DNA of 58,969 nucleotides, counting the filler, from Dugesia japonica (lineage: Eukaryota), in assembly GCA_001938525.1 (NCBI GenBank). It is 4 parts of 4 records of this genome, joined end to end, with 100 filler letters (N's around TTAATTAATTAA, not from the genome) between each part and the next. Parts side by side here need not be neighbours in the genome. Positions count along the whole stretch, not along the records: positions 26,667 to 35,972 come from MQRL01586056.1; 3 more parts are not named here. The stretch is one strand, 5' to 3'. The notes under the pieces were generated by a model that had not been told where the DNA came from, did not search any database, and saw only the letters and a program-made list of their open reading frames with translations. This document shows, one piece after another, positions 17,321 to 57,089 of the stretch (position 1 is the stretch's first letter; every line of letters begins with the position of its first letter). Position numbers and translations under genes: made by a program.

Positions 17321-17642
17321 TCTAACCGAGTGTGTATTGATCGCTGCTATCATGATAGGGGTAGGATATACTGACCCCTCACAACAGATTCAAAATTTTC
17401 AAATTACATTTATTTGAATTAAGATGATCTTCTATTCTGATCTTTTCAATTAATTATCTAAACTTAAGCAATTTAACAACAGTTATAAAAACATAAATTT
17501 ACAAAAATATAAAATATTACTGAATTTATAAAAAATAAACATGAATTAAAAATATAATATTTATCAAAAAACAATGCAATTATTGCATTCTTACTTAACG
17601 TCTTCTTTTAAAAAATATGCACTAGAATTTTCTAATTTTTAA

Positions 17643-18490
17643 CACTATTTCTACCAAGAGGTGTCAAAAGACACTTCAAATATTAACTGAACATTATTCT
17701 CGAAGTTTAATAATTTCTCTAGAATTATTTTTTTGACTATTCATACAACAGTTGTCAAATTAATTCAGCGATATTATTTTCATCCAGCTCATCCAGGATC
17801 ATAATATGTGTATACAGTATACTTGTTTCTACCATGAGGTGTCTTTTAACACCTTCAAGATTTTATAATATTATCTAATTTTAAACCGTTTTACATATAC
17901 ACGTCAACACTATTTTGCAGCATCATATCAATTGTAATCTGATTAGAGAATTCCGATTTCAGTTGTAAAGAAAAATATTTTGATGTTTGCTTGTTTTTCG
18001 TCATGCTGCATTTTACTATAGATCATTGCAGTGACTTGTTTTACGTGTTTTCTTTTCCGATTCTGATAGTAAATTCAGTACACGTGAATTTTGTTTTTTT
18101 CATAAAAAATTTGAAAATTATTATTGAAATTATTATTGCAGTTAAGTAAGCAATAAAACTTTTTGTAATACTGATAATTATTTCTATTTCTTTACGTTTT
18201 TAACGACAAAATGTAAATAACCTAATTTTATTTTTTTCTTTCTAAACTTATTCTATGAATGTCCCAAATTTAGTAAATGAAGGAGTTATTGCAAAAAATA
18301 GACAACATAAATGAAGAATGCTCTGAAATTGATGAAAGCTCACAATCTGAAATGAGGATGAGTTGGATGATTCTTTTGAAAGTGACCACGAATTTGATAG
18401 CGATTATGAAAATTATTCGCCAAGCACTAATAAAGAAGAAAATTATTTGAATGTAAGTAGAGGACGAAAGAGATTGAAAATACAATATAC
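17643..18490 (+). mobile_element. Possible piggyBac-like 5' end
   Basis: TTAA|CACTATTTCTACC start. The motif TTTCTACCAxGAGGTGTC recurs at about 17648 and 17826. Acidic coding-like stretch at about 18300-18420. Confidence 0.4.
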
Positions 18491-18593
18491 TAAAATAATA
18501 AAAATTTATATGAAAATATATTAGCAATACGACTAATAATAACTATATTAACTTAACATTCTTTATTAGTTTATTTTCTTAAAATATTAATAT

Positions 18594-19135
18594 TATTGGG
18601 GTGAAACACAAATCCACAGAATATAAATAATTAGAGTCCCTCGACAAATGATCAACCGATAAGTTTACAAATTAAATTTAGAAGAACATCTAAAATAAAA
18701 CAAGAACAAATCAAAAGAAATGCAGGAAAAGGACAAGAAAATAAATAAAGATGTTAATAAAATTTATCAACAGAGCCACTACAATTAGGAATAATAATGA
18801 AAGTTAATCAAATTAAATTGATTATCTTAAAAATATGGTTGGAAAATAAATCAGAAAATTAAATAATTTTTTCAAGAAAAAAAAATTAATTTAGTCAAAA
18901 ATCTGAAAAAAGGAAATAACTTTTTATTGGAACTTCAAAAATCTTCGAGACAAGAAAAACTGAAAAGTCCTTGACAAGAGAAATCCAATAGTTGTAAGAT
19001 TAAGATAACAATACTTTCGGAAGGGTTGGAAAAAAAGTTTCAAAGTTTAGGCCAATGGTAAGCCAAGAAAATGTGAAAGGATAAAGACAAGAAAGTCAGC
19101 AGGTGCTCTAAAAATAGGCACCAATAGAATGGGAG
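18594..19135 (+). mobile_element. Truncated LTR head (TGTTGGGGTGAAAC family)
   Basis: Starts TATTGGGGTGAAAC. Contains GGTGCTCTAAAAATAGGCAC, also present at about 58222. Abuts the mariner relic. Confidence 0.7.
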
Positions 19136-19885
19136 ACACCTTCCATATCCCACCAAATACAAAGCATGACTTTCTTATCATAATTATTACGCTTTGCGGT
19201 AGACGCTGATGCCTGTCCTGGATCAAGCCATGATTTTTTCCGTTTGGGGTTATGGAAATAAATCCATTTTTCATTGCCCGTAACAATTTGCCAAAGAAAA
19301 CTCTTTTCTCTGTCTGGCAAGTAATAATGTGGCTATACTTAAAAGATTACAGTTAGCACTTTTACTCAAAATAGGAGGGATCCATTTTCCCTCCTGAATT
19401 TTTCCTAGCGCATGTAGCCGTCTGGAAATTGTTGATCGATGTGTGTTTAATGTCATAGCCAATAGTTTCTCTGTTTGAGCGGGGTTGTCATTCAATAAAT
19501 CTTGTAATTCACTATCTTCAAATTTTTTTGGCTGACCTGGTCTTTCTTTATCATTCAAATCGAAGTCGCCTGATTTAAATCTTGCAAACCAGAATTTGCA
19601 GTTAGACAACGATGCAACATCATCAGTGTATGTTCCCTCAAGCATTTTATGCGATTCCGCTACTGATTTCCGCATATCGAATAAAAATAATAATACGTGC
19701 CTGAAATGTNNNNNNNNNNNNNNNNNNNNNNNNNNNNNNNNNNNNNNNNNNNNNNNNNNNNNNNNNNNNNNNNNNNNNNNNNNNNNNNNNNNNNNNNNNN
19801 NNNNNNNNNTTATTTTGACTTTATTACAAATATAACTAACGTTATCGCTTATTTTAAGTTTAGACCAGAATTAATGCACCTTCTT
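19136..19885 (-). mobile_element. Truncated mariner (Mos1/mauritiana-like) transposase pseudogene
   Basis: WFARFKSGDFDLNDKERPGQPKKFED, GKWIP, IVTGNEKWIYFHNPKRKKSW and KVMLCIWWD. Frameshifted and cut before the second catalytic Asp. Confidence 0.95.
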
Positions 19886-20406
19886 GCAGCGGTTGTTATA
19901 AGATTTCATGTAAAAATACATAATTTAAAGGATTAATATGTAATTATATATAATTTATTTTCTGTTTATATTAACTTGAAATTCTTCTGTTACTGATTAG
20001 CTCATTTCCAGAATGATTGGCCATGAACTTTTAATTAAACAATCAATTTATAATACACAACAACTTGAAAATAAAAAGGAAAAATAATTTCAGTGATGTA
20101 AAGTATATTATTAACGATTGTAGAACTATGGATTATAGGTCAGGATGCCAGGTAATGAACAAAGACGTATTAATAGATATTCAGAAAACTATCTTATGCA
20201 GATGTACTCGATAATATTACGAAAAATATTAATATGTTGCACTGGAACAGGGCTCAATAAAATTTATTTTAAAAATGAAGTGACAGGGCCAGATCGGAAA
20301 TGAAATACTGAGTATATGACATAAATTTCTCAAAAAATGAAAACACTGTAGAAGAACGAGTGATAATTTAGTAGGATTAGCATGATAGAATATTCCTGAA
20401 AATTTC

Positions 20407-23173
20407 TATTGGTGGTTTTATTTCATGACTGGAGGATCAGTCACCCAGCAGAACCCCTCTAAGAAATTAATCCAGCGTCCCTTGGCTAGATTTTCGGAAT
20501 AGGACCGGTAACCAGAAGTTGGAGTGCTTGTCCGCATTCCTTTGGTCCGGGTTCCCTATTCCCCATACTTTATGAGAGACAACACAACAAGATGGTTATG
20601 GATAAACATTTATTTACACATCATGATTCTTATTTATGGATGGGCCGAAGGCTCGTTACTAAAGTTGAAGGCGGCCTTGTCATCCTGGTCTTTCCACTGG
20701 TTGATTGCTAGGGTACTACTCGTGACCAGATCAGCAATATAATGTGTCAGGGACGCTACCTTGCGGAACAATCAATTCGCGGTAGTGGTAGCAAATGAGT
20801 GCAGTTGGGCTTTCCAGAGCTGTTACTGAAAGCGATAGCCTCCTTCCGGAATTCATGGCATCGTCGTTATAGACTTTTTTTGGCCTTTTCGGCGGTAATT
20901 TGGGCTTCCTAGTTTATCTTAGAAAGTCGGTACATCCTTCAAGACATCTCTTGGTCTACGCTGGCTTCACTTTATCGCTTGTACGCAGATGTCTTGGATT
21001 TGGCTCTATTTGAATTCACTGAAAGAAAAGATTCAATTGTTAATTATTTAATAATATCACGCTGATTAGTATTTAACAGTGTGAAGATAACAGAAATGTT
21101 ATTTCTATTTATTAACTGATCTATTGATAAAAATAAAGCAACACTATTCAAGTAAAGATCTTTCAGTCCATGACTCAATTACTTAATTGTTGATTATAAT
21201 TACTTATAATTATAGAACCAGAGAATAAACAACAAGAGTCAAGACAATGGTATTTGAATTATCACATAAATAATATAAATGTCGATTAATTAATTCGCCC
21301 CATCATCAAATGTTCGTCGAAGTCCTACATGAACAAATGTGTGAGAGAAGTTTGGAGTTCTACATATTTTATCATTGCCATGGGCTAATATGGATAATTG
21401 TAGCGCTCAAGGCTATCTTTACAGTGGCGTTGTACTCTATATTCGGGTGAAATATAGTGTTGATTCACCGGGATGCCGACATGCCAGCTGAATGGGTTCC
21501 AGACGCACTGAAACACAATTCGGCCGTTTACGAGTGGGAAAAATATTTATTGGTAGTTACGAGACATTCTAATATAGGTAATATAAAGTAAAGAATTATG
21601 TGACAAACGATAAAATGTTTATTGTTGAACCATTAAGACATAAATTGGGTTAGTCGTGACCAAGTGGTGTTTCCAGGGGGAACATCTCTGCGAAACACGC
21701 TAAATCTGTCTCGCTGGGATGTTCCACTTTGTCCGGATATACAATGTGTATCACTAGTCTGCGGAGTCGCACTAATTCGTGCTCATGTCTAATAATCCTG
21801 AATAGAAGGTGAGGAAAACTTGACATGTTTCGTGTTCTAAAAGAAAGATTTATTAAATTAGATCGGTTGGTGGTTGGCGGTCTTGTTACTGCTACCATGA
21901 CTTTAATGGTATCAAGAGTAGCAAGGTACTGAAGGCCATGAAACTATTAATAATTATGATCATAATGGCAATAACTATAGGTCGCAGCAACGACTATTAA
22001 TGTTAGATGATAATAATAAATTTATTAAATAACCCTCAAAATGATAATAGGGGTATCATAACGACGAGGTCATTAATAACTAATTTAATCGTAAATCTGA
22101 ATGATATATTAGCGATTGAAATGTCAAATGTTTATGTCCTAATAATTAATAATAAAAATTAATGAAATTTTCAATGATGATAACAATAATGATAGTCGGT
22201 AATAGTAATAACTATAATAATAATAACAAAACAATAAAAACCACAACAAAATTATAATAATAATATTCAAATAATAATAATCATAACAATGACCACAATA
22301 ATATTGATAATAATATTAACAAAATATAGTTTAACACAAAGGAAAAAGTAATAATATAATAATAATAATAATGAATCATGAAAATAAAAGTTCTTATTAT
22401 ACGACCACTAACAAGCTGATATTTATTAGATTAGCTGTTAACAATTAGGTCTCACAGACGGTCATGCAACACGACTCGGTACTAAATCATTTTAATGGTA
22501 ATAATAGTAACAACGATACGAGATGATAATAATGTTAATAATTACAATCATAATAGATAGTAGATATCAATAATAAATAACAGCCATAATAAAACAACAA
22601 TAATGATAATTAATAATAATAGCAATAATTATTAATGATAGAAACGACAAAATTTTTTTAAAAGTCTACACATTTTAAAAAAATTATTACAATTTTAAAT
22701 TATAATTTTGAATTGTACATTTTCTTGAAAATATTTTTATTTGCAATTTACAAATTTTCAAGAAATTTTGAACAACATCTGGCAATTTAATCTATATGCT
22801 AAAATAAGTTATTTTTAAAAATAATAATTTTCATTCAGTTTTATGTTATGAAATAAATAGTAATTTACATTGCAACATAAATAATTTACACTAATAGTTT
22901 ATATCTCAAAATGCATAATCATAATAATAATTTACATTGCAAAATACTATCAGTATATTGACAACACAATAAAGTATAATGAATCATCAATTTAAATAGT
23001 CAGGTTAAATTAATTAGTGATCCTATCGAATGAATGAATTCTATAGCAATCTGGGAACAATCTGGTTTGGTTGGTTAAAAGGGTGGTTTTATAATATTTT
23101 TTATGTATCTGTATATAATTTAGGTGACTGGGTGTATGTAAATCTTTGATTTTAGTTTCTATTTTTTCCAACA
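20407..23173 (-). mobile_element. Probable large solo LTR with internal short ORFs
   Basis: TATTGG...CCAACA termini with flanks TTTC/TTTT. The 3' motif TAGATTTTCGGAATA...CGCATTCCTTTGGT is shared with 51640-51715 and the reverse complement of 25905-25930. GC-richer ORF remnants at 20635-21020 and 21650-21898. Confidence 0.55.
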
Positions 23174-25059
23174 TTTTTGATCTTCGATTGCATCATTAAT
23201 TTTCAGATAACTCATACATATGATATTTCACTCGTATATGTATAATGATCTGTCTAAGGGAGGGGTTCCCAAAGTTTTTCTCAGGCGGGTCAATTTAATA
23301 TTACCGAATTTTTTGGCGGGCCAAAATTAAACGGAATAAAATCAAATTAATAACCACAATTTTTTGTTTTAAATATATTTAACTATTTCTTATTTTTTTA
23401 TTAGCATACTAAATTTAATATAAATATAAATCTTTAATTATATATTGGTTGGGGTGAAACATCCAGTCGAAGAAGAAAATGAAACCAAGGGCGTAAATCA
23501 GTAAAACAGAACGACAGGTTCATTATAACTAGTCGAAAGAAAAACAATTAGAACCATGGTTAGGACAGGATAAATCTAACCATTAAAGAAAAGCAAAATA
23601 AAAGTAAAGTTGAATACGAAGAGTTTGAATGAATAAAATTAACATGTATCATTGTCAAGAATTAAAAGAAATTATTGAATCAATAATAAAACTCAAGAAA
23701 ATTATTAAAGAAAAATAATTATTTACCAGAAAAATGTTAATTAATTTTGAAATAACATAAATCAAAATTAATCAAAAATTCGTTTTATACGAATAACTTT
23801 GCTCAGGAAAGCCACAGGAGCTTGGTACAAGAAAATTCGAGAAGAATTTGTGACGAAGTAATAGGATTTTGTGAATAGGAAATCTTACCACCACCCAGAA
23901 GGTTTCTACAAGGGTTGGAAGAATGGGCTAATAAGGGGCCGAAAAATAAAAATAGAACAAAGAAATAAAAATCACATGTCACTCCAAAAATATACGCCAA
24001 TAAAAGTTCTAAAACTCTAAAAAATTCAGAAGATTGGCACCAACGCCAATGATTATTAAGTGACTTGAATTCAAAATAACCGACCAACAAGAACATAGTC
24101 GGGTTGCACCAAAAAAGTTATATAAGGCTTTCAGAATTCAGAAGAAAAACCACAAATTTTTACAATATTGTTACTGAGTTCTTTAAGTGTAATAACTTTG
24201 CGAAAATCACACCAGAAAACTTTTCAAGCAGGATCGAATAATAAATTTAAATTGGTAAGATCGCGACAACTGATAAATTAATTTATCGGAATCGTTATTA
24301 GAATCAAAGAAGAAATTGTTTCAACTACTCAAGAAGATAAATTCCAAACAGAAAACATTAGTCAATTTGCCTGAAATCTACTCGTGTCGAAAAGTTAACT
24401 CGTTGCAGATACTTCAATTTTATTTTTAATAGTAAATATGAATTCTTATTCCTTTATAAAATATGTGCGTTGTTGAAATTTAAGATAATAAATAATGGTA
24501 AATGTTTCAATTATAAACTGCGTTGAAATTTAACTTGGTTATGATTTAAACTATTATCTTTGTTGAAAATTAAATTAATTGTTAATAAATGATTTAAGTC
24601 ATAAATTTTATTGCTGGTGAGAAGAACTAAAATAATTTCTATATTTAGTAATTCCATACTAATTTCTGTGACAGAATTTATCACATTTACGATGACATTA
24701 TTGATTCAGTGTGTGTCCAGAAATCGGTCAATAACAGCAGTGTTTCTCTTAATTTCCAGAACACATTAGGCCCGAATAGAATTTCGATGCATGAATTCAG
24801 TAGTGATTCACGATTATTAAGCAACTAACAGCTGGCATGCCGTCCAGGCCAAGTTTAAACACACTAACTCTCCAATTGACCTTCCAGTACGCATTTTATT
24901 ATCGACCACATATCGCTTGTTAATTAACCACAAATTTCTGTAATGTATATTTTGCAGTGCATTCATCACTGAACTGGCCCTCGGCTCCGACTTAAAAATT
25001 AGGAATGCCAGCGAGGACCAGGAAATGACCTGGGACCTCTATCGCCTCGCGAGGCGTCT

Positions 25060-25377
25060 CTAGAGGCAGATATGACCACCGTAAATAGTAAGGTACTTCA
25101 GTATAAGAAAAAATGCATCGCCTTTAAAAAGGAAGCCGAGGCCTCTCACGCTCAATAGAGAGTGTGGAAAGGGCAAGTCGAGTTCTTCGCAGAAATTATC
25201 TGGTCCTACCATGACCGAGAAAATAAACTGGTCGGCGACATCTTGTATCTCAAGGAAAAAATGCCTCTTGAACCTCTGATGATAGATAAAAGCACCCAAA
25301 CTCCGCGGCCGTAGGTACCCGGTAGTATCTGGTTCTATGAATAAACATTTTTTCATGTTTTTGTGTTTTTTTTTCAT
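25060..25377 (-). CDS. Hypothetical protein inside the LTR (antisense)
   Basis: 105-aa open frame in a GC-richer island. No recognisable domain. Confidence 0.3.
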   Translation of the reverse strand: MKKKHKNMKKCLFIEPDTTGYLRPRSLGAFIYHQRFKRHFFLEIQDVADQFIFSVMVGPDNFCEELDLPFPHSLLSVRGLGFLFKGDAFFLILKYLTIYGGHICL

Positions 25378-25441
25378 TCGTCTATACCTTTTAAGCTAAA
25401 ATAAAATTATTAGTATCAAATATTAGGACTAAGGTAGTTCA

Positions 25442-25837
25442 TTGTTGTTTTTCTTTAATATTTCACTCGTTTCAGGGCCACGTATCCAGATTCCCCGTAG
25501 TCTAAAACGATGTCAACGACTAATCCAGAAATTGCTACTCGAGAGGCATCTTAAACGCCAAACTAAGTGTGATTTGCTCCGTGACTTAACACAACGAAAT
25601 AGGCTGATGAAGAGATTGGGCGTGATTGTAAAGAAACAAAATGACTTAACTGAACACACAAAACAACTCCTTCAGCACAAGGTCGAATTTTTGAAGCGTT
25701 ATATTGCCTACCTATCGTGTCAATTAGGGAATTTTGCATGTCTCAAGTGTGATGATAATGACGACTCGGTGTTGTTCGACTTCGTGCCAAAAGTGCCTAC
25801 CCAGTGGTTGGACCCGGGTGCTCTAGATGAAATGTAA
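25442..25837 (+). CDS. LTR-borne coiled-coil protein, probably a terminal exon starting after TTTCAG at about 25476
   Basis: Open frame with heptad-like LLRDLTQRNRLMKRL...LLQHKVEFLKRYIAYL. Sense to the LTR and lies just before its 3' motif. Confidence 0.55.
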   Translation: MLFFFNISLVSGPRIQIPRSLKRCQRLIQKLLLERHLKRQTKCDLLRDLTQRNRLMKRLGVIVKKQNDLTEHTKQLLQHKVEFLKRYIAYLSCQLGNFACLKCDDNDDSVLFDFVPKVPTQWLDPGALDEM

Positions 25838-26566
25838 TTTAAAACCAATACAATCTATTATTAGTATTTAGTTTATTTATTGAATAACCAAAATAATAGG
25901 TAAACAAACGAACCCAAACCAAAGGTATGTGAGTGTGAACCTCCCGTAAAGGATGCAGGTCAACCGCTCCACACTGAATTTGAGGACATTAGATGTAAAT
26001 TCTTGAAAGGTTATCCCTGAGGGCCTTTTTTCCAAGCACTGTCTAATTTTACAATCAACTCAGGTGGGACCCCAAAATATTTATTCAAACAAAAAAATAA
26101 CTGAAATCTATCTTATTATATAATAATATAAATAATAATATAACCACAGTTATTATAAAATCTTTCAATTTATTAACACGAAAGTAAAATCACTCTTATT
26201 GTAAAAACTGAACTATAACTATAGCAACAAGTATTATTAACATAAACAAATGTAACTGGAACTAAACTTATAATTATAAATATAACTTTTTAATCATTGC
26301 TACAATGATAACAAACTAGTACTATTCATTAACACTAAAAAAATAAAATATATTGTATCGATATCGCGGTTCGAATTCACAGGCTTTGTGGGCCGCAATT
26401 TGTGAACACCTGGTCTAGGGTTCACAAGAATACATAAGAATACATTTTCTAACAAGAATACATAAGAACTACAAAACTTAGTGCACCCTCGTGCGTTTTC
26501 CCTTTTCCCGAATCCACCGAATTTTCGTGGTAACCCTTCTTAGCTAATTGGTATCGAGATTCATTT

Positions 26567-26666
26567 NNNNNNNNNNNNNNNNNNNNNNNNNNNNNNNNNN
26601 NNNNNNNNNNTTAATTAATTAANNNNNNNNNNNNNNNNNNNNNNNNNNNNNNNNNNNNNNNNNNNN
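26567..26666. other. Artificial contig linker (N44-TTAATTAATTAA-N44); identical linkers at 35973-36072 and 45211-45310
   Basis: The same 12-mer, with stops in all six frames, is centred in a 100-bp gap three times. Confidence 0.95.
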
Positions 26667-29658
26667 TTACAGGTGCTGACATTGATACTCGTTTTATAAA
26701 AATTCAAAATTGTAATATTTTTATATGTAGCCATTTAAGAGGTTTAAATTCCACCAAATATCTTTTTTCAAACAAAATTTAAAAAATTTTATTTAAAAAT
26801 CACCAAATTAATTATTCATAAAGTCTACATTTTATATATCTAACTAAAACGTAAATCTTTTTTAATAATTTTATGTTTTTCTAAAACAATTTTTTTGGCA
26901 GTATATAATTTGTAAGCAAAATAATGATGCGGTAATTGGTAATACCGTTTACCGAAAATGGAAACCCTACTTGTAATCTAACTGTTTGAGACTGACTTAA
27001 TGTTTACGAACCAAGCAAAATCATTCTGAGTAATCTGGATCGATCCAATTCAATAATATAATAGTTGTTAAATTTATGTATATATATATCATGGGAGTCC
27101 ACAGAATTATTTTTAGGGACGAGCAAAGTTTTAAAGTACTGGGACGGAGACAAACGAGAGGCTGCCTCGGCACCCTCATGATTAACGGGTATGCACAGCT
27201 AGCGTCGTAAGCTCTCCCAACTGTGTCTGAAGTGTATTCCAACCGCCAGCGCTTTTGCATTTGATACGATATGTGTCTGTTTCAAGCTATCTGCAATCCA
27301 GTTTTTAACTATATCTGAACGTATATTTCAGGAACAAAACTTAAAATTTTGGAAATTTATATATTTTTAAAATCTTTTAGGTTATCTTGACAAAACGATT
27401 GGATAAAAATTAAAATTTGAAAAAAAACATTGGCATAATGACATTCATTATGAAAAACTAAGATAATTTAATTTTCATGACTGAAGTCTAAAAACNACTC
27501 TGATTCTTATGAATTTTATTCTTGTTCTTGAAATAACAATTGCATTCGTTTGGGTTCTTGTCCAAACTGATTAATCACTGTTTCTATGAATTTTTCTTTT
27601 TAACAGTTGAAAAAGTATTAATAAGCAAGAATATGGTTAAACAAGTTAAAGATTTAATTTTACATGAAAAAATCAAAGAAGTTAAAATTGAAAATGATTT
27701 ATTAAAGAAACTTGAAAATCAAATTATTGAACAACAGAAAATAATTAGTAAATTAAAGAAATAAATTGGATAACGTGTGACTGCTTTGTTGGGCTAGAAC
27801 ACAAAAACGGGTGAAATAATAAAAAATGTAAAGATTGGGAAAGTTTTACGAAACTGGAGAAGAGCATACACAAAATTGATGAACTGGACCAGAAAATATT
27901 ATCAAAAAATCATTATTCTTATTATTATGGTCATTATTATTATGTAATTATTATTATTATAATTATTATGGGAATATCGTAAAATAACGGAAAATAAAAA
28001 TTGGGCGTAAAAGATCCAAATTTTATTTCACAAAAGTAAAAAGTGTATGAGAGGAAAGGAAAGGAAGCAGTTAATAAGAAAAATAAAATACGATATTATA
28101 ATAATTTATTAAAGGGGTCTCTGAGACCCTAAATAGCGTTAAATATTAATTATTATTGTAAATAAATTGGTCCAGTCATCAGTCCTTGTCTAGCTGACAA
28201 AAAATAAAACGAAAATCATCAACAAATTAGCTGAATCATTTCCTGCTAGACAAGGACTTCTCCTCAGTAACTATCAGAGGTCACACGAGGTTACTGATGA
28301 CGAGGAAGTCCATTCCGAGTTAGTGTGTCGAAATTAGTACGACACAATTTAGCCAAGAGATGCAAAACGAAGGAGAAGGAAACAGCAAGCAATCATAAAC
28401 CCAAATTGGACGAAAAACAATGCTGATTTGCAAACGAATGAGTCGTTCCAAGTTGGGGTGCTAACGAGAAAAAAAACTCGTTTGCACTGAAGAAATCGTC
28501 AGAACCACAATTTAATTTTTGCGAGAGTTGAATTTTAATTTTGTAATTTTATCATTGAATTTCGTTTTTCAAAGAAAATTTAGTTTCAAAAATCGGAGAA
28601 TAGATAATTGAAATAAAAGTAAATTTTAATTTTAATTTTAAAAATTTACCCCATTGTTTTTTTTTATATTATAAAATCTGAGTGTCCCAATTAACGGTCG
28701 TGCTCCCGGAGAACAGAAAAGCAAATTAAAAAAAATAACCGTGAGGAAAAATTAGCAAACCCACGATTACAACAAATGAGATTCGATTATATGATAGAAA
28801 AAGCAGAAATTGACTATCAAAGAAAAGAGACACCATCGATATTAATTTGAAACCGCAAGATGAATTATAATTGACAAATTCGACACGTCAAAATGAGATG
28901 TAATTGTTGTTAAATTACTTTACAGTTATGATAGAAGAATGAGAAATTAAATATCAAGGAAAAGAGATGCAATCTGTATTAATTTATAACCGCAACATAA
29001 GAGAAAATCGGCCAATCCAGAACACAAAAAAGGAGATGTAATTACGACCAAATAAATGTTAATTATGATAAAAAGAAAGAAAAATTGAATATCATGTAAA
29101 GGAGGTACAATCGAGATTAATTTATGATCGAAAAATGGGGAAAATTGGCTAATCCAACACTGAGGAAATGGAATTCAATTATTGATAGGTTATTGCAGAC
29201 ATAAAATGAACATGCAGAATGATCATTGCAGAAGGTGGGGAGCTCGATAAATGAACACTGAATACACTTTGAATTTGATAAATGATTTTGGTTTTGGGTT
29301 TCGGGCAGTTTTTCTTTATTTTTATAAATTTGTCTTTAAGTTTTAATACAGCCTATAATTGCTAAAAAATTGTGTTTTCATTAAATAATTGAGATTTAGT
29401 AACGTAATAAGTTATTTAATTATAAATAAACGACGAATAAGAAGTCGTATTTTCATGTTCCATATAACCATATTGAAAGTTTTTAACGGAGCTTCGAAGT
29501 AGTGGGAACCAGGGAAGATGTCTGCTATTGTAGACATCTTCTCTGATTCGTACTACTGAAGATCGTTATATTAATTGCCTTATTTTTACTTTGATTTATT
29601 TTTGAATCTCATTTAATATTATTATAATGTATTTTGATAAATTTATTTGGTAGAAACC

Positions 29659-30090
29659 ATGACTGAGTATTATAAATCTCCTATTCCGTTGGTCCATACT
29701 AACGACGGAAACGAAGGAACATTCTGGATTCCTTGGAGAAACACCGTTGAGCTATTGGAAGAACAGTGAGGAAAACACGAGAAAGAAAAAACGGAGTTAC
29801 TTCATAAAGGCGGTCAACTGGTGATGAAGTTTAGGAGTGTGAAGCAACAACTGATCACCACCCAGGCTACTCTGCTGAGGACCCAACAGGAGAACGTTCA
29901 GCTCCGGCAGGGGATGAAGCGGATAAAGGACGGAGTCAATGCGTTAATTCGGCTCCAGATGGACCAAGGAGCTTTGATAGGCCAGCTCGAAGAGCCAGTT
30001 TTAACAGTAACATCCGAAGATGCGGAATCTGGGTTGGCACATACGCTGGTCATCGCCAAAAAGGTATCGATGCTCGCACCAGATGACTAA
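29659..30090 (+). pseudogene. LTR-borne coiled-coil mini-gene 1 (144 codons, one internal TGA)
   Basis: ATG at 29659 just after a TAG acceptor, in frame with ORF 29821-30090. AATAAA at about 30103. Confidence 0.65.
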
Positions 30091-30423
30091 CTAATATGTG
30101 TGAATAAATATTGTTAAAAATTTTTTTATGTTATTGTGTTCATTTCTAATAGCGTGTTGATCAGATGTGATATGTATGTCACAGTGAGAGTAAAACATAT
30201 TTTGTGTTGAACGCAGAGGCCGTCATAGATTTAATGCATTTGATTGATCCTTATCTGATTCGGAGTAATAGCACAAAAACGGGAGCAATATTTAACCCAA
30301 TAGCTATTAAATAATTCTAGGTCTCGGATAATCAAAAAAACTCATAATATTTATTGTCTTTAATTATTTATATTCACATAGTCGGTTAAAGATATTGCAA
30401 TTGATTTTCGTCTTATTATTTAG

Positions 30424-30743
30424 TGAACTAATCCCATGATGAGAAAATATTTAAACGAGATGTAGTTGCAGCGCAGCAATGATGGAAGGAGGAGAGACGC
30501 GATTTGCGTAACGAAATCTTACAGCTCAAAAGCCAATTGAACCGATCATCGTCGAAATATGCTCAATTAAAAGAAAAAGAGTTGGCATTACAGCGGGCCA
30601 ACCGCCTTATGTCCGACACCATCAAAATTTATGCCGATCGCGAGGCCACGATGTTCCTCGCTCTGCGGACGTTGTGGTTAAATTACCGATCCCCAAAGCA
30701 ATCGACCGAAGTCATGGAGCAGACCGTCAATCTGGACTCCTAA
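30424..30743 (+). pseudogene. LTR-borne coiled-coil mini-gene 2 (terminal exon, one internal TGA)
   Basis: TTTAG acceptor at about 30423. DVVAAQQ*WKEERRDLRNEILQLKSQL... continues into ORF 30504-30743. AATAAA at about 30772. Confidence 0.6.
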
Positions 30744-31274
30744 TAACCGAAGGAGGAATTGAAGATTTATAAATAAATGTTGCTGGGTGTTGCTTTGAGT
30801 ACTTCTTGAACTATAGTATTAATTGATGAGATGCGCTTATCATATTTGTTTTTACTGAGCATGTGAGATTATTACTATCAGGGTTCATGTATTCAGTGAG
30901 TAAGACGCGATACCGCAAAGTCGCGCTGAACCGGTGGAAATAAAGGGGCATGTCACAGAAGTGACATAAATACTTGTGGTTTTTAGGGATGCCCCTAGAT
31001 TTTGTGATGAAAGTTTAAATATACAAAGGAAATTGTGAGAGTAGCGACTATTCTAAAACAGCAAATCCTAAAAACCCAACAGCTTTATTAATTTTATATT
31101 AAATTACAATTTAGATTTAGAAAGTGTTTTATGCATAAGACACTTTTTCATTTAGAAATAGTCTCACGCTTCAGACATTTTTTATTTTAGATTTTAGAAA
31201 TTAATCACTTTAATATTAAAAATAGTCTTACGCGTAAGACACTTTTTTAATAAATTTGGCTGCAGTCACCAACT

Positions 31275-34200
31275 TTATATTGAACTACAATTTAATTTTT
31301 GTTTTAATTTATTTAATCTTAAATACCACTGATTACAAATTTCATATTTAAACTTATTTCCCTGAGGCCATGTTCTTATTCCATTGTCTTCAATTAGTCT
31401 TTTGTCATCATAGCACGTTAAAGCTATTTCTTTTGTTCAACAAACTCAATTTCATGTTTATGTGATTTTAAACTATTATTAGTTCCATAAATTATTTCAT
31501 TTGACTCTAAAGCTTTATCGAATTCTTTCATACCTATTTCATTAAATTTAGAAACAACTTTATATATTTTATCTAACTTGTTGGTATCAAATTTGTAAGC
31601 ATAACTTTTTGATTTAATAAAATCACATTTAGTAATTTCATTATTTGGTTTCTCATCTTTCCATTGAAATAAATTATTACCTAATAAACTTTCTACTTGA
31701 GTTAAATTATTTCTTCCAATAATTTCTACAAAATATAAATCTGTATCACTATAATGAATTTTATACTTGTTTGGTATTGCATTATCTAATTGATTATAAA
31801 TAAAGTCATAAATTACTTCTTTAACGTATTCTAAAATAGTGAAACCAATATATAGGAATTTATTATATTTTAATTTTGATTGTCTCAAATGAATAGCTGC
31901 TGTTTCTGCTCGCTTGGTTTCTGTACATGTAAATATTTTACTAGATCTAAAATTTTTCTTTATCTGTTCCAACTATTTCTACATTACATATTTTTCCTAT
32001 GCCTTCTAAAGTCTTTCCATAAAATCATTATTTAATAATTTAAAGAAACAATCTCCAAATACATCGTTATTTCTTTTTGATTCATTTCTTTGATTAATAT
32101 TAAATTCAGTGTAATCTTTTAACCAAGCTTTTGTTGGAAAGATATATTTCGAATGCATTTTTTTATTTTCATTCCTAATTTTAAATATAAATCTAATGTA
32201 GAACCCAAAACAATATAATTTTGTTTATCAAATTGATTCAATGTTAATTTAATATTTTTCTTGAATAATTTCTTGCTAAATGATAATTGATATGGTCTTA
32301 ACATTTCTTCTTTAATATTTATTCTATCAGGATATAGAGGAAAATACTTTGTCTTTTCATGTATTTCTGGAGGATATTCTATATAAACTTCATAAATGTA
32401 ATTAATTTCTGAGGTTGATTTTTTATATTCCAAGTTGTTAGATTCAATTATTTCACCAGCTGATAAAGATTTTGTCATGCAATAGACATAAAGACTGTTT
32501 TCATCAATATATTTAATAAATGTATCTTCAAAATAATCTTGTGAAAATATTTGTTTTCCTTGTAATAATAAATTTAATAAATCATTCNNNNNNNNNNNNN
32601 NNNNNNNNNNNNNNNNNNNNNNNNNNNNNNNNNNNNNNNNNNNNNNNNNNNNNNNNNNNNNNNNNNNNNAGAAACCACCTCTAACACCTCTTTCTATTTT
32701 TAGAAATATGTTGTAAGTATCTTCTTGTGCATATTTTAGTTTCTGATTTGTGAATTTCATTCCTGCAGCCCAAGTTAATTCTGGAGCTGAGTAACAATAG
32801 CTTGGATGTATTTGATAATTATTTAAACAAATCAATCTAAAGTTTTCAAAAAAATCTGCTAAAATAATTACATATAATTTCATATAAAACATCATATAAT
32901 CAGATAAATTATTAAAACTTTGGAAATCTTGTAAAAATTGATTGTATTCTTGTTCAGTTATTTTTTGTTGTTTTAGTTTATTGTTCAAATCTTCTTTTGC
33001 CGGAACTCTACCTAATTTTAATAATTCAATTACTTGATTAATGTTTTCTCGTTTTACATATTCACATGAAAATTATATTTTCTTTGGAATGAGATTAAAT
33101 GATATTAAATGATTATATTTTCTTGATTGATTTAATAATTTACCCATTGTGCCAATCAATGTAAAAGGACACATTCTTGAAGAATCTAAAACTCTGATGT
33201 GTCTAAATTCAAAGGAAATGTACACTTCATCTGAATGTGGAATTATTCTTTTTACTTCAGTTAGATATTTTATTAATAATTCTTTGAAAAATAAATGATT
33301 GTCATAACCAGATTCATTGTGAAAATAAAATGGTATAAATAATTCTTTTATAGTTTTATCTTATAAGTTACAATTTGAATGAGGATAACTTCTGAATTCC
33401 CCATTAAAGTGGTCATGATCAATAACTAGATTTTCAGTTATCTTTTTATTACAATATCTACATTTGGATGATCAGTTCTAGTATAATATTCAATTAATTT
33501 ATTTTCTTTTATATCTTTTAATTTATTATTAATCTCTTCTAAAAATTGAAAGAACTGTTGATGTATATTCTCTCCATAAAATTCTTTATATTCATTTTCA
33601 ATTAAATGTTGATATTTACTTTTGATGTAAATTCTTAGAGATAAAGGTTTTTGTTTTTTGGTAATTATACTAGTCCAACTTTCGAAATCACCATAAATTA
33701 CAAATGGTAATTCAAATGGTAAATATTTATCATTTTCAAAATATACTTTAGATGAATTGTGGTTAAAACATTAATTCCACAATAATTTTTAGATCTTTTT
33801 TGATAGTAATTCTTTTATTACTTGAATATGAATTAAATACTCTTTCTTCATCTTCTTTAGTATAATTACAATTTACACTCAATCGTAACCCAAACTTTTT
33901 TGAATTATCAAAATAAATATCAACAATTTTACTAATTTCATTTTTAAACCAAGATATTAATTTAAAATTTAATTTTTTACATTTCTAGTTAATTCAATTT
34001 TACTTTCTTTAAAATATTCAATTTTATAATACTTTATATTTTTTAAATGTTTAAATAATTTTCGAGTTTCATTCCTTTCAAAATCAGTTGCAGGTAATTC
34101 ATCAAATAAATTTTTAGTTTCTTCTCTCAATTTTAAAACACGATCTTTGTGTATTCCACATTTAAAATGAGATCTTGCATGGTTTTCTCTAGTGAATGTT

Positions 34201-34430
34201 AAATTGCAAATATCACAAAATAATAGAACTGCATCAACCCTATTTGAACCCCTACTATTTCCGGGTCGCTCCGCTCCACAATTTGTGGAGTTTTTATGTA
34301 ATATCAAACCTTTTTCCCTTGCTAATCTTTTGAAACAAATGTTACACGTGTAATATTCGTACACTGATCTTGCACAGGTTCTATATTGATTATGCGACGA
34401 CAACCCCGCGTTATTTTTAAAAGTATTGTT
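31275..34430 (-). pseudogene. Polinton/alphadintovirus-type protein-primed DNA polymerase B with N-terminal zinc fingers and an endonuclease VII-like domain
   Basis: Motifs in order: zinc fingers (CNIC...H, CDIC...H...H), FVIYGDFES, VIDHDHFNGEFRSYPHSNCNL, FHNESGYD, LADFFENFR, IERGVRGG, YIDENSLY, KLLNN, GFTILE, YSDTDL, KSKSYA, CYDDKR. Multiple frameshifts and stops. Confidence 0.93.
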
Positions 34431-35121
34431 AGTAGGTAGATAGTGGCGCACTAGCCCACCCCCTCCCCGCGTGGGAAAAAAAAATTTTGTCGAGAAATTT
34501 TTTTCGACAAATTTTTTTTGTCAAGAAATTTTTTTCGATAATTTTTTTTATTTTGCGCGCGAATTTAAATTCGAATTGTAGAAACAATTATAGGGTTGAG
34601 CGCGCAATTTGATGGCGCNNNNNNNNNNNNNNNNNNNNNNNNNNNNNNNNNNNNNNNNNNNNNNNNNNNNNNNNNNNNNNNNNNNNNNNNNNNNNNNNNN
34701 NNNNNNNNNNNTTTTTCGACTTGAAACCAATTGCAATCTTCAGGAAATTAAAAACTGCCTATACATTACCTAAATTACTACTAACACACACACCTTTGAA
34801 GGTTTCAAAGGGGTCTGGAGCGGTCATTTAAAAATATTTTTGCCAAACATCATATAAAAATATTATGGAGAATTAAATTCTCTACATTTTGCGTATTTAA
34901 ATTTTGACGAGAACTTCGTTTCTGATGAGATATTCACCATTTCTAAATTTGGACTGTAGGGGCCCCATTGAAGTTTTTTGACATTTTGAAATTTATTTAG
35001 TTGTAAAGTAAATTGAAAAGTACCTATACATTGTCTAAAGGACTAGTATCGAAAAATCCTTGCTTCATGGTGAAAAATGAGGTCTATGTCTAGTAGGTAG
35101 ATAGTGGCGCACTAGCCCACC
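34430..35121. repeat. Segment bounded by a 31-bp direct repeat that truncates the pPolB 5' end
   Basis: TAGTAGGTAGATAGTGGCGCACTAGCCCACC at 34430-34460 and 35091-35121. Internal palindromic TTTTGTCGAGAAA/TTTCGACAAA repeats. Confidence 0.8.
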
Positions 35122-36778
35122 TGTACCTTATTAGCACATAGAAAAGTGCTATGGTAAAAACGTAGGTATCGTTGGACGCGTAATTTTATGACGAGCACGA
35201 TGGTGCATTTATATTTGTAGTCCAATGTAAAGGTAAAACGTTATTAAACATTTAATATTTGAAAATGGCGTACAGCCACCACCTTTAAAGATATGACTTT
35301 GAAATTTTTACCAGTGGATAGACAATTAAAACCTACCTATACATTACTTATAAGACTAATATCATAAAGTGCTTCATTTTATCACAAATTTGAAAATTTG
35401 AAACAAAGAACTTTTTTTTGAATTATAATTTTTAATTTAAATTTTAATTTTGAAAATTTTTTTTTAATTTTTTATTTTTTTTAAAATTTTTTTGTTTTTT
35501 TCTGAAATTACAGGAAATGAAAAAGTAAAATAGGAATGCAACAAGAACTTATATATTAAAATATTTAATTCCTAATAAAAATTTAGTTTCAATTTTTTTT
35601 TAAATTTTTTTTTGTTTTTAAATTTTTTTTTTAATTATTTTTTTTATTGTTATAACCTAAATAAAATAAAGAAATAAAGACATTAATACATTTATTTTAA
35701 TTGACAACAATACATTTAATTAACTACAATGTTTTTTNNNNNNNNNNNNNNNNNTTATTGTATTTATAAATTTCCTCTTCAAATCCTTCTTAACATCTTC
35801 ACATTCTTCTTTATGGTACATGTGATAAATTTCAAAAACCTTCACGATATCTATCCCGATAAATTGTTACATTTTCTCCCAAAATATTTCTGGTGCCTAA
35901 TATGAGGATTCATCCTGGTGGTTTGGATAGATATTGTCGAGTAAATCAACAAATGACTCTAAAAACTAATTANNNNNNNNNNNNNNNNNNNNNNNNNNNN
36001 NNNNNNNNNNNNNNNNTTAATTAATTAANNNNNNNNNNNNNNNNNNNNNNNNNNNNNNNNNNNNNNNNNNNNTATATGAGCTTATTGATTAAATGTTTCG
36101 AAATTACATGAACTTCTATTTAATATTTTTCAAACATTATAATTATAACTGTGATCTACAATAAATTTATGCATTAACTAACCTATAAGTTGAAATCATA
36201 AATTTCGTAATTTTATGTTTGAAATAATTTATAATAGAAATATTGGATAAATTACAATTTCTAATTTTGATGATTACTTAGATTTCGTATAGTAGATATT
36301 TGAAAACCTCTTCAAACATGGAAACATCGTAAATTTGATATTCAATTTGAAAAAATTTTAATTATAAATTACTTTTTCATTAGTTTTACAAAATTAAACT
36401 ACAAGTTTATTATTAATTAAATGAATTTCATTTTATTACATGACTGCCTTTTTGTAATTATTAATGGTGGTTGCTAACAAAATTGTTACCAATTCTTATG
36501 AAACAATAGATGTTTAACAAAGGTAAAATTTTTCTTAGAATTGATAGAGATTATAATTGGTTCCAAGGACATTAGCAATTACAAAAATTACATGGTGAAG
36601 CCTGAAAATATTTTCGTCCATAATTATTTCATTTAATAATAATTTTTTAGTGTCATTGGAGAATTTATGAAACGGGAATTTTAGTTTTAATTATATTCTA
36701 AAAAACCTTCATAAAATAAATATTTTGAAAACTGCATTAAATAAGGAATCAACACATAAATGAGTAAGCACATAATAC

Positions 36779-37510
36779 CGCATTTGGCTACCTCCATCCG
36801 GGGTGAGAGAATACCTTTTCCCGATCATAATGTACCTTATTATTTGGCTGGCTGAAACCTTTTGCAAGAATAATATATGGCAATCTAAACTCCTGTGATT
36901 GTTCATTAGCTATTCGTTTTATATTTTTACATCGATGTTCCATAACCATTTCCAGATCATAACAAATTTCTTTGCCATGTTTGTGAATTAGTTATAAAGT
37001 TTTAAGTTTGCAGTCAGATTTTTGTATATTTTATTCTTAAAAGTTAGATATTAGACATTTATTTGGAACAACAATGGATAAAACGTAACACAAAAACATT
37101 GAATACGAAGTAAAAGAATTGGAGTGATTTACTTTCAAAATTTTTGGATATAATTAGTTTTTAGCAAAACAAAATTTAGCTTTACGGAGTAATTAGGAAA
37201 ATAATAACTGCATAGAATCAACAGAAAATGGAGGTAACTATTTAGAGTTGGTTCATTAAAGAAATGCTCAGTGCTGTGTGAGGATATTCTTAAAATAAAA
37301 CTAAGAATAAAAATATAACGCATGTGTTACCCACATTTCAAAACAAATTGATTGAAATAATGGGACAAAAATAAAAAATCCAAAATAATTGAGGATATAA
37401 AAAAGGCAAAATACTTTCAATCATATTTGGTTCCAATCAGCTAAATAATATGGTACGTTATGATAGGAAAAAGGCATTCTCTCACCCCGGATTGAGGTAG
37501 CCATTATGCG
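36779..37510. mobile_element. TIR element (about 80-bp TIRs) containing a ZMYM1-like hAT transposase fragment
   Basis: GGCTACCTCCATCCGGGGTGAGAGAAT... is inverted at 37430-37510. Internal plus-strand LAKQNLALR, GNYLELV, PTFQNKLIEIMG and IIEDIKKAKYF. Confidence 0.7.
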
Positions 37511-37634
37511 CAATGACACGTTTTAACATTTAATATGAACATTTTCTATATTGAAATTGCTTTTTTTATTATTAATTTAAGTTTGTAGAGAATAAAATTA
37601 TTGAAAAGAAAATAAAATTATAACAATCTGTGAT

Positions 37635-38003
37635 CAGTGGCAGATTTATCTATGGGTTAAATAAGCTCAAGCCTAGGGCTCGAGTTTTAGGGGGCATACA
37701 ATCGAGGTTTACTAAATTAATAATGAACTTTTACGCGCAAAAATCTATATTTATTTAAAATTCAAACACTTAAACTGATTTCAACTTAAAGGTTAGTTAA
37801 TGCATAAATTTATCATAGATCACAGTTATAATTATAATATAAATTATACTAATCAGAATATATTACATTAAACATACTATAGTATTGATATGTTTTATTA
37901 TAATTTGTGATGTCTTTTAAAAATATGAAAATTTGATATGGAGGGGCAGTCCTGTGTAGAGCCAGAACTCTATAGTGACTCCCGTCATTTAAGCCTGGCA
38001 CTG
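37635..38003. mobile_element. hAT-type MITE
   Basis: CAGTGGCAGATTTA...TTTAAGCCTGGCACTG termini. 8-bp TSD TCTGTGAT/TCTGTAAT. Confidence 0.75.
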
Positions 38004-38554
38004 TCTGTAATGATTTGAATATAAAGTTTAGATGATTCAAATTCTTAGAACCACATAACTTAGTTTATATCAACAGGAGAAATTACAAATAATCAATAAT
38101 CATTAACAGATTAATCGCCGTGCGTTGTGTTGATCATATTTATTTCACACACAGAAATACTATTTGAATTAAATTTAAATATTTATAAAATGGTAAAATG
38201 GCTCAAGTTTCACAAATTTTCACTTTATGGGGATTCTCATGTTTAAATTTTCCTTCCTAGTTTAAAAATTCCTTCATTTTCGAATTATTCTTTTCTACAA
38301 TTCTAAGGTAATAACTAATTTCAACCATTTTTAATTTAATTCATTTAATATAATATTTGTTTACTAAAACTTTATTTGCCGTATAATAGCTACTATTTCT
38401 AAAAGTCTTTATCATTTGTCCATTTTCTTCAATAGTTAGTTGCTGGGCAAGAAAACCAACTTGAAATTCAAATATTTATGATGGTCTTAATATCTTCATA
38501 TACATATTACGTTTAGTAGCATTAAAATTAGCTCTATACATAAAATATGTTATA

Positions 38555-40379
38555 CAGGGCTATTTATAATTATATCCACCTTATGCATAATTATATGAAC
38601 TTTTAAATTGAAATTAAAATATTATATTTAAAACAAAAAATGTATAAAAAAATAAAATCTAATATGTATTTTAAAGTAAAAAACGTAGAAATATTTTTTA
38701 ATAATACTGTTGTAAATAAAATTAATGCATATAGATATCAATAATACATTTAATCTCTGATGATATTGAACAAAAAATAGGAGTGTTCATTTTTAAAGAA
38801 AAATTCGAAATAATTCTATGTATGAAACAACAGAATGTTAAAATTGAAGATATTTCGGTGGCAACAAGTATTGAAAAATAAGCCATTTATAAAAAGTTAT
38901 TTGCATTTGACAAGCATCTAGAAAAGGGTGGAAATACAAATAATTTTTTTAAAAAATTCGGGCGAAAATTAAACAGCAACAATCATATACAGGAGGAATT
39001 GTACGAAACAGTATCATTGGATAATGCTCTGACCCAAGAGGGAATGAAAGATAAAACTACTGGAAAATGGTATTCAAAAATCACAATCTGCATTATCTCG
39101 TATTCTCAAAAGCATCAATATCACAAGATAAAAATTGAAAAAAATGAAATTACGTGAAAAGAGAAAAATAAATTACCTGAAAAGAGATACATAAGTCAAA
39201 ATTATTCTATCATCGTGAGAAATACAGGATAATAAACTATTTTTTATTGATGAGACAAAATTCAATCTACATACTTCTACTAATTATGGATACAGTTCTG
39301 CAAATAACGAGGCTTATATAAGAGTCCCCAAAACCAGAGGAGTCAATGAATCACTTATGGCATGTCTAGGGTTTAAGGGAATAATGGCACATAAAATTAT
39401 TGATGGTGCATACAATGGATATAAATATTAGGATTTTATAAATAATCTTACTTATAGGAATCTATTAGAAATTGGGGATACTTTGGTTTGTGATAATGTT
39501 CCGTTTCATCATTATATAAGAACAAGAAATCCACTTGAGCAAGCCAATGTTAATCTGGTTTTTTTACCACCATATTCACCTCAACTAAATTCAATTGAAA
39601 ACGTTTTTGGTTTGACAAAAATGTGATACATATCAATGATGCCGATATAGGGCAAACACGTAACTACATGAAATAAAGAATATTGTCGGTAATGAATGCT
39701 CTAAATATTGATGAAAATATATCTTTTCTGGAGTTTTATAGGTCAATGAGAATGTATTGTGACAAGGCATAATTTGGAATTTTTTTAGTCTAATAATCGT
39801 TTAAATTATGAATTTTGTTCTATATAAAATATATTTATTTATTCATTTCAATAAGATAAATTTAACATATTTTTCGAAGTAGTATTTTTGTATAATTATA
39901 TATAATGGGGAAGTATATATTTTATAAAATAATTTTAAATCGAAAAAAGATCTATTGTATTGAATATCTCAAGAAGCCAACATGTTCCTGAAGAAGACCA
40001 TTGTCGAAAATTTGAANNNNNNNNNNNNNNNNNNNNNNNNNNNNNNNNNNNNNNNNNNNNNNNNNNTAATGAAATCTCAAATGCGATCAATGGTTAAGTC
40101 CAACAATTATTCTCACAATAATTGTAATTATAAAATTCGAAAAATATAATTCATTTTAATTTAAAAGTGGATATAATTATAAATAAAGTAGTTATAATTA
40201 TGAATAGAGTGAATATAATTATAAATAGAGTGGATATAATTATAAATATATTATATATAATTATGAATGAAGTAGATATAATTATGAATAGAGTAGATTT
40301 ATTTATGAATAGAGTGAATTTAGTTATGAATAGAGTTTTTATCATTATGAATAAAGTAGATATAATTACGAATAGCCCT
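38555..40379 (+). mobile_element. Decayed Tc1/IS630-like transposon with a subterminal 21-bp tandem array
   Basis: LFFIDETKFNLHTSTNYGYS, LVCDNVPFHH and VFLPPYSPQLNSIENVF. TIRs TA|CAGGGCTATTTATAATTATATCCAC and GTAGATATAATTACGAATAGCCCT|TA. 21-bp repeats at 40160-40370. Confidence 0.9.
39981..40016 (+). ncRNA. Minimal hammerhead ribozyme motif in a Penelope-like fragment
   Basis: GTTC-CTGAAGA-A-GAC CATT GTC-GAAA-ATTT-GAA shows both core boxes, a 3-bp stem II, a palindromic stem III and a partial stem I that runs into an N gap. Confidence 0.55.
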
Positions 40380-41730: not shown

Positions 41731-42106
41731 AATGGATACAGTTTTTTATAAAATGTTAAATGATTATAATTTTAAAAATAATTCTATAATAAATTTTNNN
41801 NNNNNNNNNNNNNNNNNNNNNNNNNNNNNNNNNNNNNNNNNNNNNNNTAAAAGAAGGAAAAAGAAGATATGTAAAATCTTCTGATGTTACTAAATTATAT
41901 AATAGATTAGTAAGTGATCCCAAAAAATTATATAGCCTTTCTGTAAATGAATATACTAATATATCTACAAAAGGATGTAAATCAATTGCATCTGCACAAG
42001 CTAAATTTAANNNNNNNNNNNNNNNNNNNNNNNNNNNNNNNNNNNNNNNNNNNNNNNNNNNNNNNNNNNNNNNNNNNNNNNNNNNNNNNNNNNNNNNNNN
42101 NNNNNN

Positions 42107-43740: not shown

Positions 43741-43749
43741 ATTTAAGAA

Positions 43750-57088: not shown

Positions 57089-57089
57089 A

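Follow-up and report, generated by a model that had tools for sequence, protein, structure and literature searches.

Long LTR-type units in a Dugesia japonica window

We analyzed a stretch of 58,969 nucleotides from the planarian Dugesia japonica (assembly GCA_001938525.1; four parts of four records joined by filler, hereafter the window), in which an initial annotation had described giant solo long terminal repeats (LTRs), each leaving a protein-coding gene behind. Four main units, which we call U1 to U4, share the layout claimed for them, an A-rich head followed by GC-richer open reading frames (ORFs) and a conserved tail, and this layout is found in both of the lineages described below (to avoid confusion, we write "U3 region" for the part of an LTR and "unit U3" for the element). 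The units are genuine insertions, multi-copy repeats with LTR-type ends. Homology between diverged units supports the view that their ORFs belong to the element itself and once coded for proteins.

The termini are of the TG...CA type: exact in U1, U4 and two further units, weak in U2, and in unit U3 differing by one mismatch each from the family ends TGTTGGGG and CCCCAACA, which are intact at 57727 and 56954. By their ends the units fall into two lineages, one formed by U1 and U4 (TGTTGGGCT) and one by unit U3 and its relatives (TGTTGGGGT). The exact 4-bp target-site duplications (TSDs) reported for U1 (GGTA) and U4 (GCTT) hold. The TSDs of unit U3 and U2 had both been called weaker; that of unit U3 proved to be an exact TATT, and U2 remained weak. 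Two more TSDs, AATA and ATTC (the latter on a split copy), were found. Five units have terminal inverted repeats (TIRs) of 5-8 bp, and their ends are asymmetric. We infer LTR identity from the TG...CA ends, the 4-bp TSDs and this asymmetry.

TGTTG...CAACA pairs flanked by a 4-bp match number 13 of 1131, against ~10.5 expected from a 4-mer match rate of 0.0093, which is chance level; when one end has to be TGTTGGG or CCCAACA, 4 of 92 pairs show the 4-bp match, where 0.86 would be expected (p=0.011). We accept the units as real because of their internal homology and copy number, not because of ends or TSDs alone. One candidate, at 6895-8164, has the TSD ATTG and was rejected as a family member: it is AT-only, gapped and without the shared motifs.

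Table 1. Units, ORFs and internal features in the window (positions along the whole stretch)
Feature	Position	Strand	Description
U4	27787-31081	+	3295 bp; TGTTGGG/CCCAACA ends; exact TSD GCTT at 27783-27786 and 31082-31085
U1	12098-13672	-	1575 bp; exact TSD GGTA; internally deleted relative of U4
Unit U3	23447-26077	+	2631 bp; second lineage; TGTTGGGG-type ends; exact TSD TATT
U2	20407-23173	-	2767 bp; degraded; weak ends (one end TATTGG, flanks agree at 3/4 bases)
Further unit	46068-46974	+	907 bp; TSD AATA; CCAAT and TATA close to 5' end
Further unit of the U3 lineage	51506-52952	-	1447 bp; three CCAAT boxes; short ORF; without TSD
Head of a U3-lineage copy	57727-58969	+	Likely tail inverted at 56954-57087
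Truncated U3-lineage head	18594-19040	+	Next to mariner remnant
U4 ORF A	29659-30090	+	143 codons, interrupted by a single premature stop; helical/coiled-coil-like; AATAAA at 30103
U4 ORF B	30441-30743	+	Coiled-coil-like; broken near start, open 30483-30743; AATAAA at 30772
U1 ORF A remnant	12540-12965	-	Three stops in read-through frame; AATAAA overlapping stop
U1 ORF B remnant	12190-12320	-	Truncated at junction with tail
U3 ORF a	24957-25345	+	Frameshift and stop; C-terminal DKSTQT; AATAAA at 25340
U3 ORF b	25475-25837	+	Acceptor 25475; ATG 25510; frameshifted; without AATAAA after stop
U2 ORF b remnant	20634-21019	-	Frameshifted; followed by AATAAA
U2 ORF a	21650-21943	-	97-codon open stretch without clear start; followed by AATAAA
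U4 A-rich head	27787-28150	+	Common to U1: first 13 bases identical, ~60% identity over ~400 nt
U4 structured block	28170-28520	+	Very high copy; fold z -4.17, 0/100 shuffles
U4 137-bp unit	28766-29219	+	~3 diverged copies by self-alignment, 65-72% identity
U4 structured tail	30895-31081	+	Fold z -3.76, 0/200 shuffles; border ~30897 beside TCAGT
U3 candidate promoter and leader exon	24033-24261	+	CCAAT 24033, 24046; TATA 24119; donor-like GTAAGA 24255

The ORFs are conserved as proteins between diverged units

U1 and U4 are collinear, with head, ORF A, spacer, ORF B and tail in the same order. The alignment of their ORF B products scored 62, a value reached by none of 2000 shuffles, and the spacer score was reached by 2 of 300. 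In the second lineage, a frameshift-aware comparison of U2 ORF b with U3 ORF a scored 55 (null 29.9±3.8, 0/22); no DNA-level match between the two units is reported despite this ORF homology. For U3 ORF b against U2 ORF b the raw score was 43.

Across 130 aligned codons, in segments selected on inspection, identity by codon position was 0.57/0.62/0.28, and the ratio of nonsynonymous to synonymous differences (pN/pS) was 0.44, compared with 0.72±0.08 in simulated neutral divergence (0/400). The summed alignment score was 227 versus 113±9 for codon-shuffled unrelated controls. Two different statistics thus reject the two null cases: pN/pS rejects neutral homology, and the alignment score rejects non-homology. 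GC content at the first and third codon positions exceeds that at the second in all five ORFs analyzed, and none of 11 listed indels within U4 falls in an ORF (p=0.06; 12 of 18 indels listed).

In six of seven ORFs an AATAAA occurs no more than 35 nt from the stop (p 1e-4 to 1.4e-3; 4/5 in independent sets, p 0.003-0.016), which agrees with the statement that it often follows them. By a crude score, an acceptor-like AG within the unit's top 7 precedes six of eight ORFs, and the one at 30423 ahead of U4 ORF B ranks first of 206; the splice acceptors claimed ahead of the ORFs thus have candidates at these six, whereas U4 ORF A and U3 ORF a have none in that top 7. Likewise, CCAAT and TATA boxes are clear in unit U3, where both are preserved in the 57727 copy, and in two further units, and are not clear in U1 or U4.

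The U1/U4 collinearity, the U2/U3 ORF homology and the coding-like codons speak against separate secondary insertions, which the initial annotation had named as a refuting case. If the units are LTRs, these would be ORFs conserved as proteins within an LTR. The predicted proteins look coiled-coil and appear to be without relatives in the searched collections. A word search found no relative of ORF A (10 candidates); none was found for U3 ORF a; the Atlas returned generic coiled-coil look-alikes at low recognition for ORF B and none for U3 ORF b; Pfam gave sub-threshold coiled-coil matches alone; and pattern matches, 596 of them metagenomic and 36 viral, contained no locus for ORF B. Three HMMER matches of ORF A were rejected as artefacts, being repeat-rich proteins with scores summed over 4-7 weak stretches. 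The DKSTQT end of U3 ORF a is presumably a motif of the type that binds LC8, a dynein light chain. In 15 read-through frames (six for U4; sense only for U1-U3) no Pfam family was matched, so that neither gag nor pol, whose absence had been noted before, nor a transposase remnant was found inside the units.

Copies in the window are decayed

All seven main ORFs are broken, a state the initial annotation did not mention: six by stops or frameshifts and U1 ORF B by truncation. An eighth, U2 ORF a, lacks a clear start. The premature stop in U4 ORF A is missing in 142.8 of 158.7 contig depth (X1) and is thus largely private to the window copy. Among 40 of the 376 differences listed, at least 15 (stop site excluded) lie within the ORFs, 5 synonymous and 10 nonsynonymous, as expected for neutral decay of the window copy. 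The copies in the window are dead: they are pseudogenes.

RNA reads on U4 were scarce. Library X22 contributed 316 of 13.6 million reads, 305 of them partial and 2 at least 99% alike, and X21 contributed 21 of 10.5 million, with 0 at 99%. RNA depth followed DNA depth over U4 (Spearman 0.73), and the RNA/DNA ratio (×1e-4) was 12.6 in ORF A, 3.7 in ORF B, 17.6 in the non-coding middle and 2.5 in the flanks. No pile-up of molecule starts or ends was seen on U4 in either library, in which mate directions disagree and strand is uncalibrated. These data argue against strong expression of the U4 subfamily in X21 and X22. Planarian LTR elements are described as silenced by PIWI-interacting RNA (piRNA) in the available part of PMC8532177.

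Copy number and internal structure of U4 and unit U3

We aligned four runs to positions 27500-31400 at an 85% likeness threshold, with U4 as the sole unit examined. In total, 5027 DNA contigs aligned to U4 and its flanks and covered all 30 bins. U4 is multi-copy over its full length, with structured blocks of very high abundance near its head and in its tail and a middle of low copy: summed depth, which is a total over contigs and not a copy number, reached 79,977 at 28155-28285 and 171,717 at 30906-31036 and ranged over 60-1350 across the middle. Four contigs connect one flank of U4 with the other across the unit, and by eye the letters between approximately resemble an empty site. The flanks themselves (27631-27786 and 31082-31400) belong to another multi-copy repeat with summed depth 645-5900, and a short coiled-coil ORF lies at 27537-27764 within this host repeat.

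The tail of U4 has a sharp border, with 43 contigs diverging upstream of 30897. Contig joints lead from 29311, 30187, 30656, 30685 and 30691 into the tail at 30896-30898, and U1 is joined alike. An end block that is conserved, preceded by sequence that varies, fits the R-U5 and U3 regions of an LTR; in crapaud, subfamily variation is located in the 5' half of the LTRs, according to the portion of PMC10787394 consulted. The inner tail hairpin shows two-sided change in the loose ends of other copies, and on these features the tail is a candidate R-U5. Because a longer tail pattern found no viral and no metagenome contig, five viral contigs matching a 17-mer of the tail were taken as chance.

Within the structured block near the head, a 14-bp perfect stem (28181-28194/28245-28258) begins at TCAGT, a motif that recurs beside the tail border and that we take to be initiator (Inr)-like. 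The block is a candidate internal promoter or leader. Immediately 5' of U4 ORF A lies a 26-bp inverted repeat (29498-29557; 85% complementary, 8-nt loop), and close by, in a single contig of RNA type, 120 letters ahead of 29489 do not match U4. Across 11900-31400, Rfam families gave 0 matches at E<=1, and hence no hammerhead ribozyme of the kind that retrozymes carry in their LTRs.

Proposed reading: solo LTRs with accessory genes in the U3 region

We favor the reading, with a probability of roughly 60%, in which the units are solo LTRs left by a lineage of Gypsy type, possibly like Burro, that carries accessory genes in its U3 region, the copies decaying after insertion. At least two related lineages would have long LTRs because one or two accessory genes occupy the U3 region, each gene module consisting of an acceptor, a short coiled-coil ORF and its own poly(A) signal. 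An active element would probably express the genes as mRNAs that are spliced or internally promoted and that use alternative last exons; these would come from a promoter in the initial 0.4-0.7 kb of the LTR or from the full transcript's 3' LTR. Genomic RNA would begin at the tail, a short structured R-U5. The proteins would have been under selection as the lineages diverged. Integration would then have been followed by LTR-LTR recombination and by decay of the solo copies.

Unit U3 may illustrate this arrangement in order: CCAAT, TATA, the donor-like site at 24255, an acceptor at 24957, ORF a, AATAAA at 25340, an acceptor at 25475 and ORF b could be read as an internal promoter feeding alternative last exons, with 24033-24261 as a putative promoter and leader exon. 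In U4, the block at 28170 may act as promoter or leader, and the tail as the R-U5 of the genomic RNA. That the units are LTRs, where their U3/R/U5 borders lie, that splicing occurs, what the proteins do and how the lineage is linked to Burro are inferred rather than shown, and the mechanism is drawn from anatomy throughout. It is also conceivable, although we consider it doubtful, that the LTR is a modular multi-gene cassette with an internal promoter and leader and several alternative last exons, each encoding a small coiled-coil protein with a poly(A) signal of its own (one protein having the LC8-type end), that subfamilies exchange modules, and that young solo LTRs scatter working copies when piRNA silencing lapses.

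Several observations weigh against solo LTRs with U3-region genes. Poly(A) signals within an LTR need a bypass. No primer-binding site, polypurine tract, paired LTR or gag-pol neighbor was seen in the listed contig pieces, which are 141-303 aligned nt long, and none of 20 listed loose ends (of 665) lies at either U4 terminus. The AATAAA at 30939 was tried as a conserved poly(A) signal of the tail and dropped, as it is absent from the loose ends of other copies. Mapping of spliced RNA, which the initial annotation had proposed, gave no GT-AG joint on U4 among 15 of 49 listed, at an RNA depth over the ORFs (<2) too low for splice joints; other copies or conditions may differ.

The coding evidence has weak points of its own. 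The score for ORF A between U1 and U4 (48) is marginal, being reached by 39 of 2000 shuffles and by 8 of 500 in a second test. The aligned segments were picked after inspection; the position-3 deficit of 0.315 is only 1.6 sd above that of protein-guided unrelated alignments (0.206±0.068); and a DNA-only alignment of ORF B gives a weak pattern by position (16/25, 20/25, 13/23). Taken over the entire unit, ORF A is not significantly long (106/1000), and we discarded ORF length as a proof of coding by itself. A match of U3 ORF a to U4 ORF B was rejected (score 33, null 30.7), and the lineages may thus carry unrelated cargo.

Among the alternatives, the one proposed originally, that the solo LTRs are working spliced genes and each leaves an expressed protein-coding gene, is quite improbable. 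The acceptor-ORF-AATAAA modules would suit it, as would the CCAAT, TATA and donor placed 5' of two acceptors in unit U3 and the lack of the ORF A stop in most other contig depth. Against it stand the breakage or truncation of all seven main ORFs and the background level of U4 RNA in X22 and X21, which tracks DNA copy number. The anatomy of the units as first described holds, then, and the claim of a working gene per solo LTR is unsupported; we limit our own claim accordingly because the outcome in the window is pseudogenes. A further possibility is that the ORFs are GC-rich stretches that arose by chance, or secondary insertions unrelated to the ordinary solo LTRs that hold them, which would account for ORFs that have no database relatives and whose length alone is not significant. 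It is largely refuted by the AATAAA placement and by the collinear homology of the proteins of diverged units, and has very little probability left.

Two further explanations concern the nature of the units. Non-autonomous cut-and-paste elements with TGTTG ends and small cargo genes, Ginger-like or of an unknown integrase type, seem unlikely to us. Ginger1 and Ginger2 do have TGTNR ends and 4-bp TSDs, internally deleted copies exist here (U1 and the contig joints), and gag-pol was not seen. However, Ginger TIRs measure 40-270 bp against 5-8 bp and asymmetric ends in the units, Ginger targets are CCGG/CCGT or RTATAY whereas none of the five unit TSDs is CCGG or CCGT and the flanks are not RTATAY (though unit U3 comes near), and the transposase that Ginger elements encode has left no Pfam-detectable remnant in the units (Ginger features from the accessible text of PMC2836005). 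Slightly less likely again are deletion derivatives that join the start of a 5' LTR, an accessory ORF3 region and the end of a 3' LTR, so that the normal place of the ORFs would be after pol and before a shorter LTR. Spliced accessory ORF3s past pol, some of them coiled-coil, are known from rotifer LTR elements (PMC5408684, in the section available), accessory ORFs are reported for Burro (PMC6431247, likewise in part), and the window holds one unit of ordinary size, 907 bp. The head and tail of U4, however, share no direct repeat, no junction resembling a primer-binding site or polypurine tract was noticed by eye inside the units, and the layout is shared by two lineages.

Comparison with known systems

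Solo LTRs are usually treated as non-coding regulatory leftovers. A coding U3 region is documented in a few vertebrate retroviruses: that of mouse mammary tumor virus (MMTV) contains the entire sag ORF as well as upstream promoters, and nef of human immunodeficiency virus overlaps the U3 region of that virus (PMC12789967, from the part consulted). The MMTV LTR resembles the proposed LTRs in having a coding ORF inside; in MMTV this is expressed from spliced RNA or extra upstream U3-region promoters (same source). It differs in belonging to a vertebrate retrovirus and in having one ORF, whereas the units, repeats of an invertebrate type, have up to two, each with its own AATAAA, and there is no sequence relation.

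Burro/GYPSM1 elements, giant elements of planarians, are Gypsy-type, occur in thousands of copies in an AT-rich genome and resemble the units in LTR size and in carrying accessory ORFs; for one species, decayed Burro copies interrupted by stops and frameshifts have been reported. Their accessory ORFs lie upstream of or within the polyprotein, unlike those of the units, and the section describing them is silent on ORFs in the LTRs (PMC6431247, as far as that section goes). The Burro/GYPSM1 polyprotein comprises Gag, Env-like, BIR/BCL2 domains and pol, whereas the units are without an internal region. The likeness is drawn from descriptions of Burro. Ogre elements of plants have LTRs of 1.9-6.5 kb, comparable in length, but their extra ORFs are in the internal region (same section of PMC6431247). 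The rotifer ORF3 elements (CC, TM, GDSL, DEDDy) share family-specific accessory ORFs, some coiled-coil, and give spliced messages at low level with small-RNA coverage; they differ in that ORF3 lies downstream of pol and outside the LTR (PMC5408684, in the part available). The ORFs of the units are similar to them in being small, coiled-coil and probably spliced.

We found no case in the literature of a coding LTR in an invertebrate retrotransposon; Grohme 2018 and the supplements of PMC11410931, which may describe these LTRs, lay outside this search, as did Repbase. If confirmed, the favored reading would account for the several-kb length of the LTRs, reveal an orphan family of small proteins overlooked by annotation, and make LTR-LTR recombination a route that seeds new small genes.

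Other units and neighboring repeats in the window

The window is AT-rich (GC per kb 0.15-0.40), gapped and dense with transposon remnants, including mariner, a Tc1-like DDE, and the capsid, integrase and PLA2 of Polintons. Pfam read-through scans covered 31300-45401 and U1-U4; elsewhere, Pfam scans covered selected ORFs. Within 31300-45401 they detected Polinton integrase, PLA2, DDE_3, endonuclease VII and a zinc finger, and found no reverse transcriptase or Gag.

A U3-lineage copy is split between 57727 and 56954. Its head and tail face outward and carry ATTC at both ends in element orientation, which fits a single copy broken by inversion; the arrangement at 56954-57726 reflects either an inversion or a contig placed the wrong way round. 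Between the tail and the head sits sequence that by eye resembles Polinton polymerase. A Mos1-like mariner remnant at 19047-19870 (-), 72% identical to its closest relative, adjoins the truncated head in Table 1. The 46068-46974 unit has a GC-richer 76-codon stretch on its opposite strand.

Polinton/Maverick sequence occurs at 42529-45087 (+), with a double jelly-roll capsid and an ORF with PLA2-like and integrase parts, and at 31424-34520 (-), with DNA polymerase B-like pieces (by eye) and an endonuclease VII and zinc-finger match. Tc1-like DDE_3 transposase remnants lie at 39219-39620 (+) and 588-887 (-), and a remnant at 8400-9250 (-) looks hAT-like by eye, its tested ORF giving no Pfam match. 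A C3HC4 RING finger fragment at 47296-47559 (+; zf-C3HC4_3, E 5.5e-14) resembles, as we take it, the inhibitor-of-apoptosis (IAP) type; a RING/BIR region is reported in Burro1.

Near-identical duplications of 163 bp (41546-42010, adjoining gaps) and 123 bp (50830-51489) are probably assembly artefacts. The sequence TTAATTAATTAA, with 44 N on either side, occurs three times (26611-26622, 36017-36028 and 45255-45266) and is assembly linker-like. Finally, 14137-14830 (+) is GT-rich, like part of the end of U2, and after it come a GC-richer ORF of 76 codons and an AATAAA; it is possibly another degraded unit.

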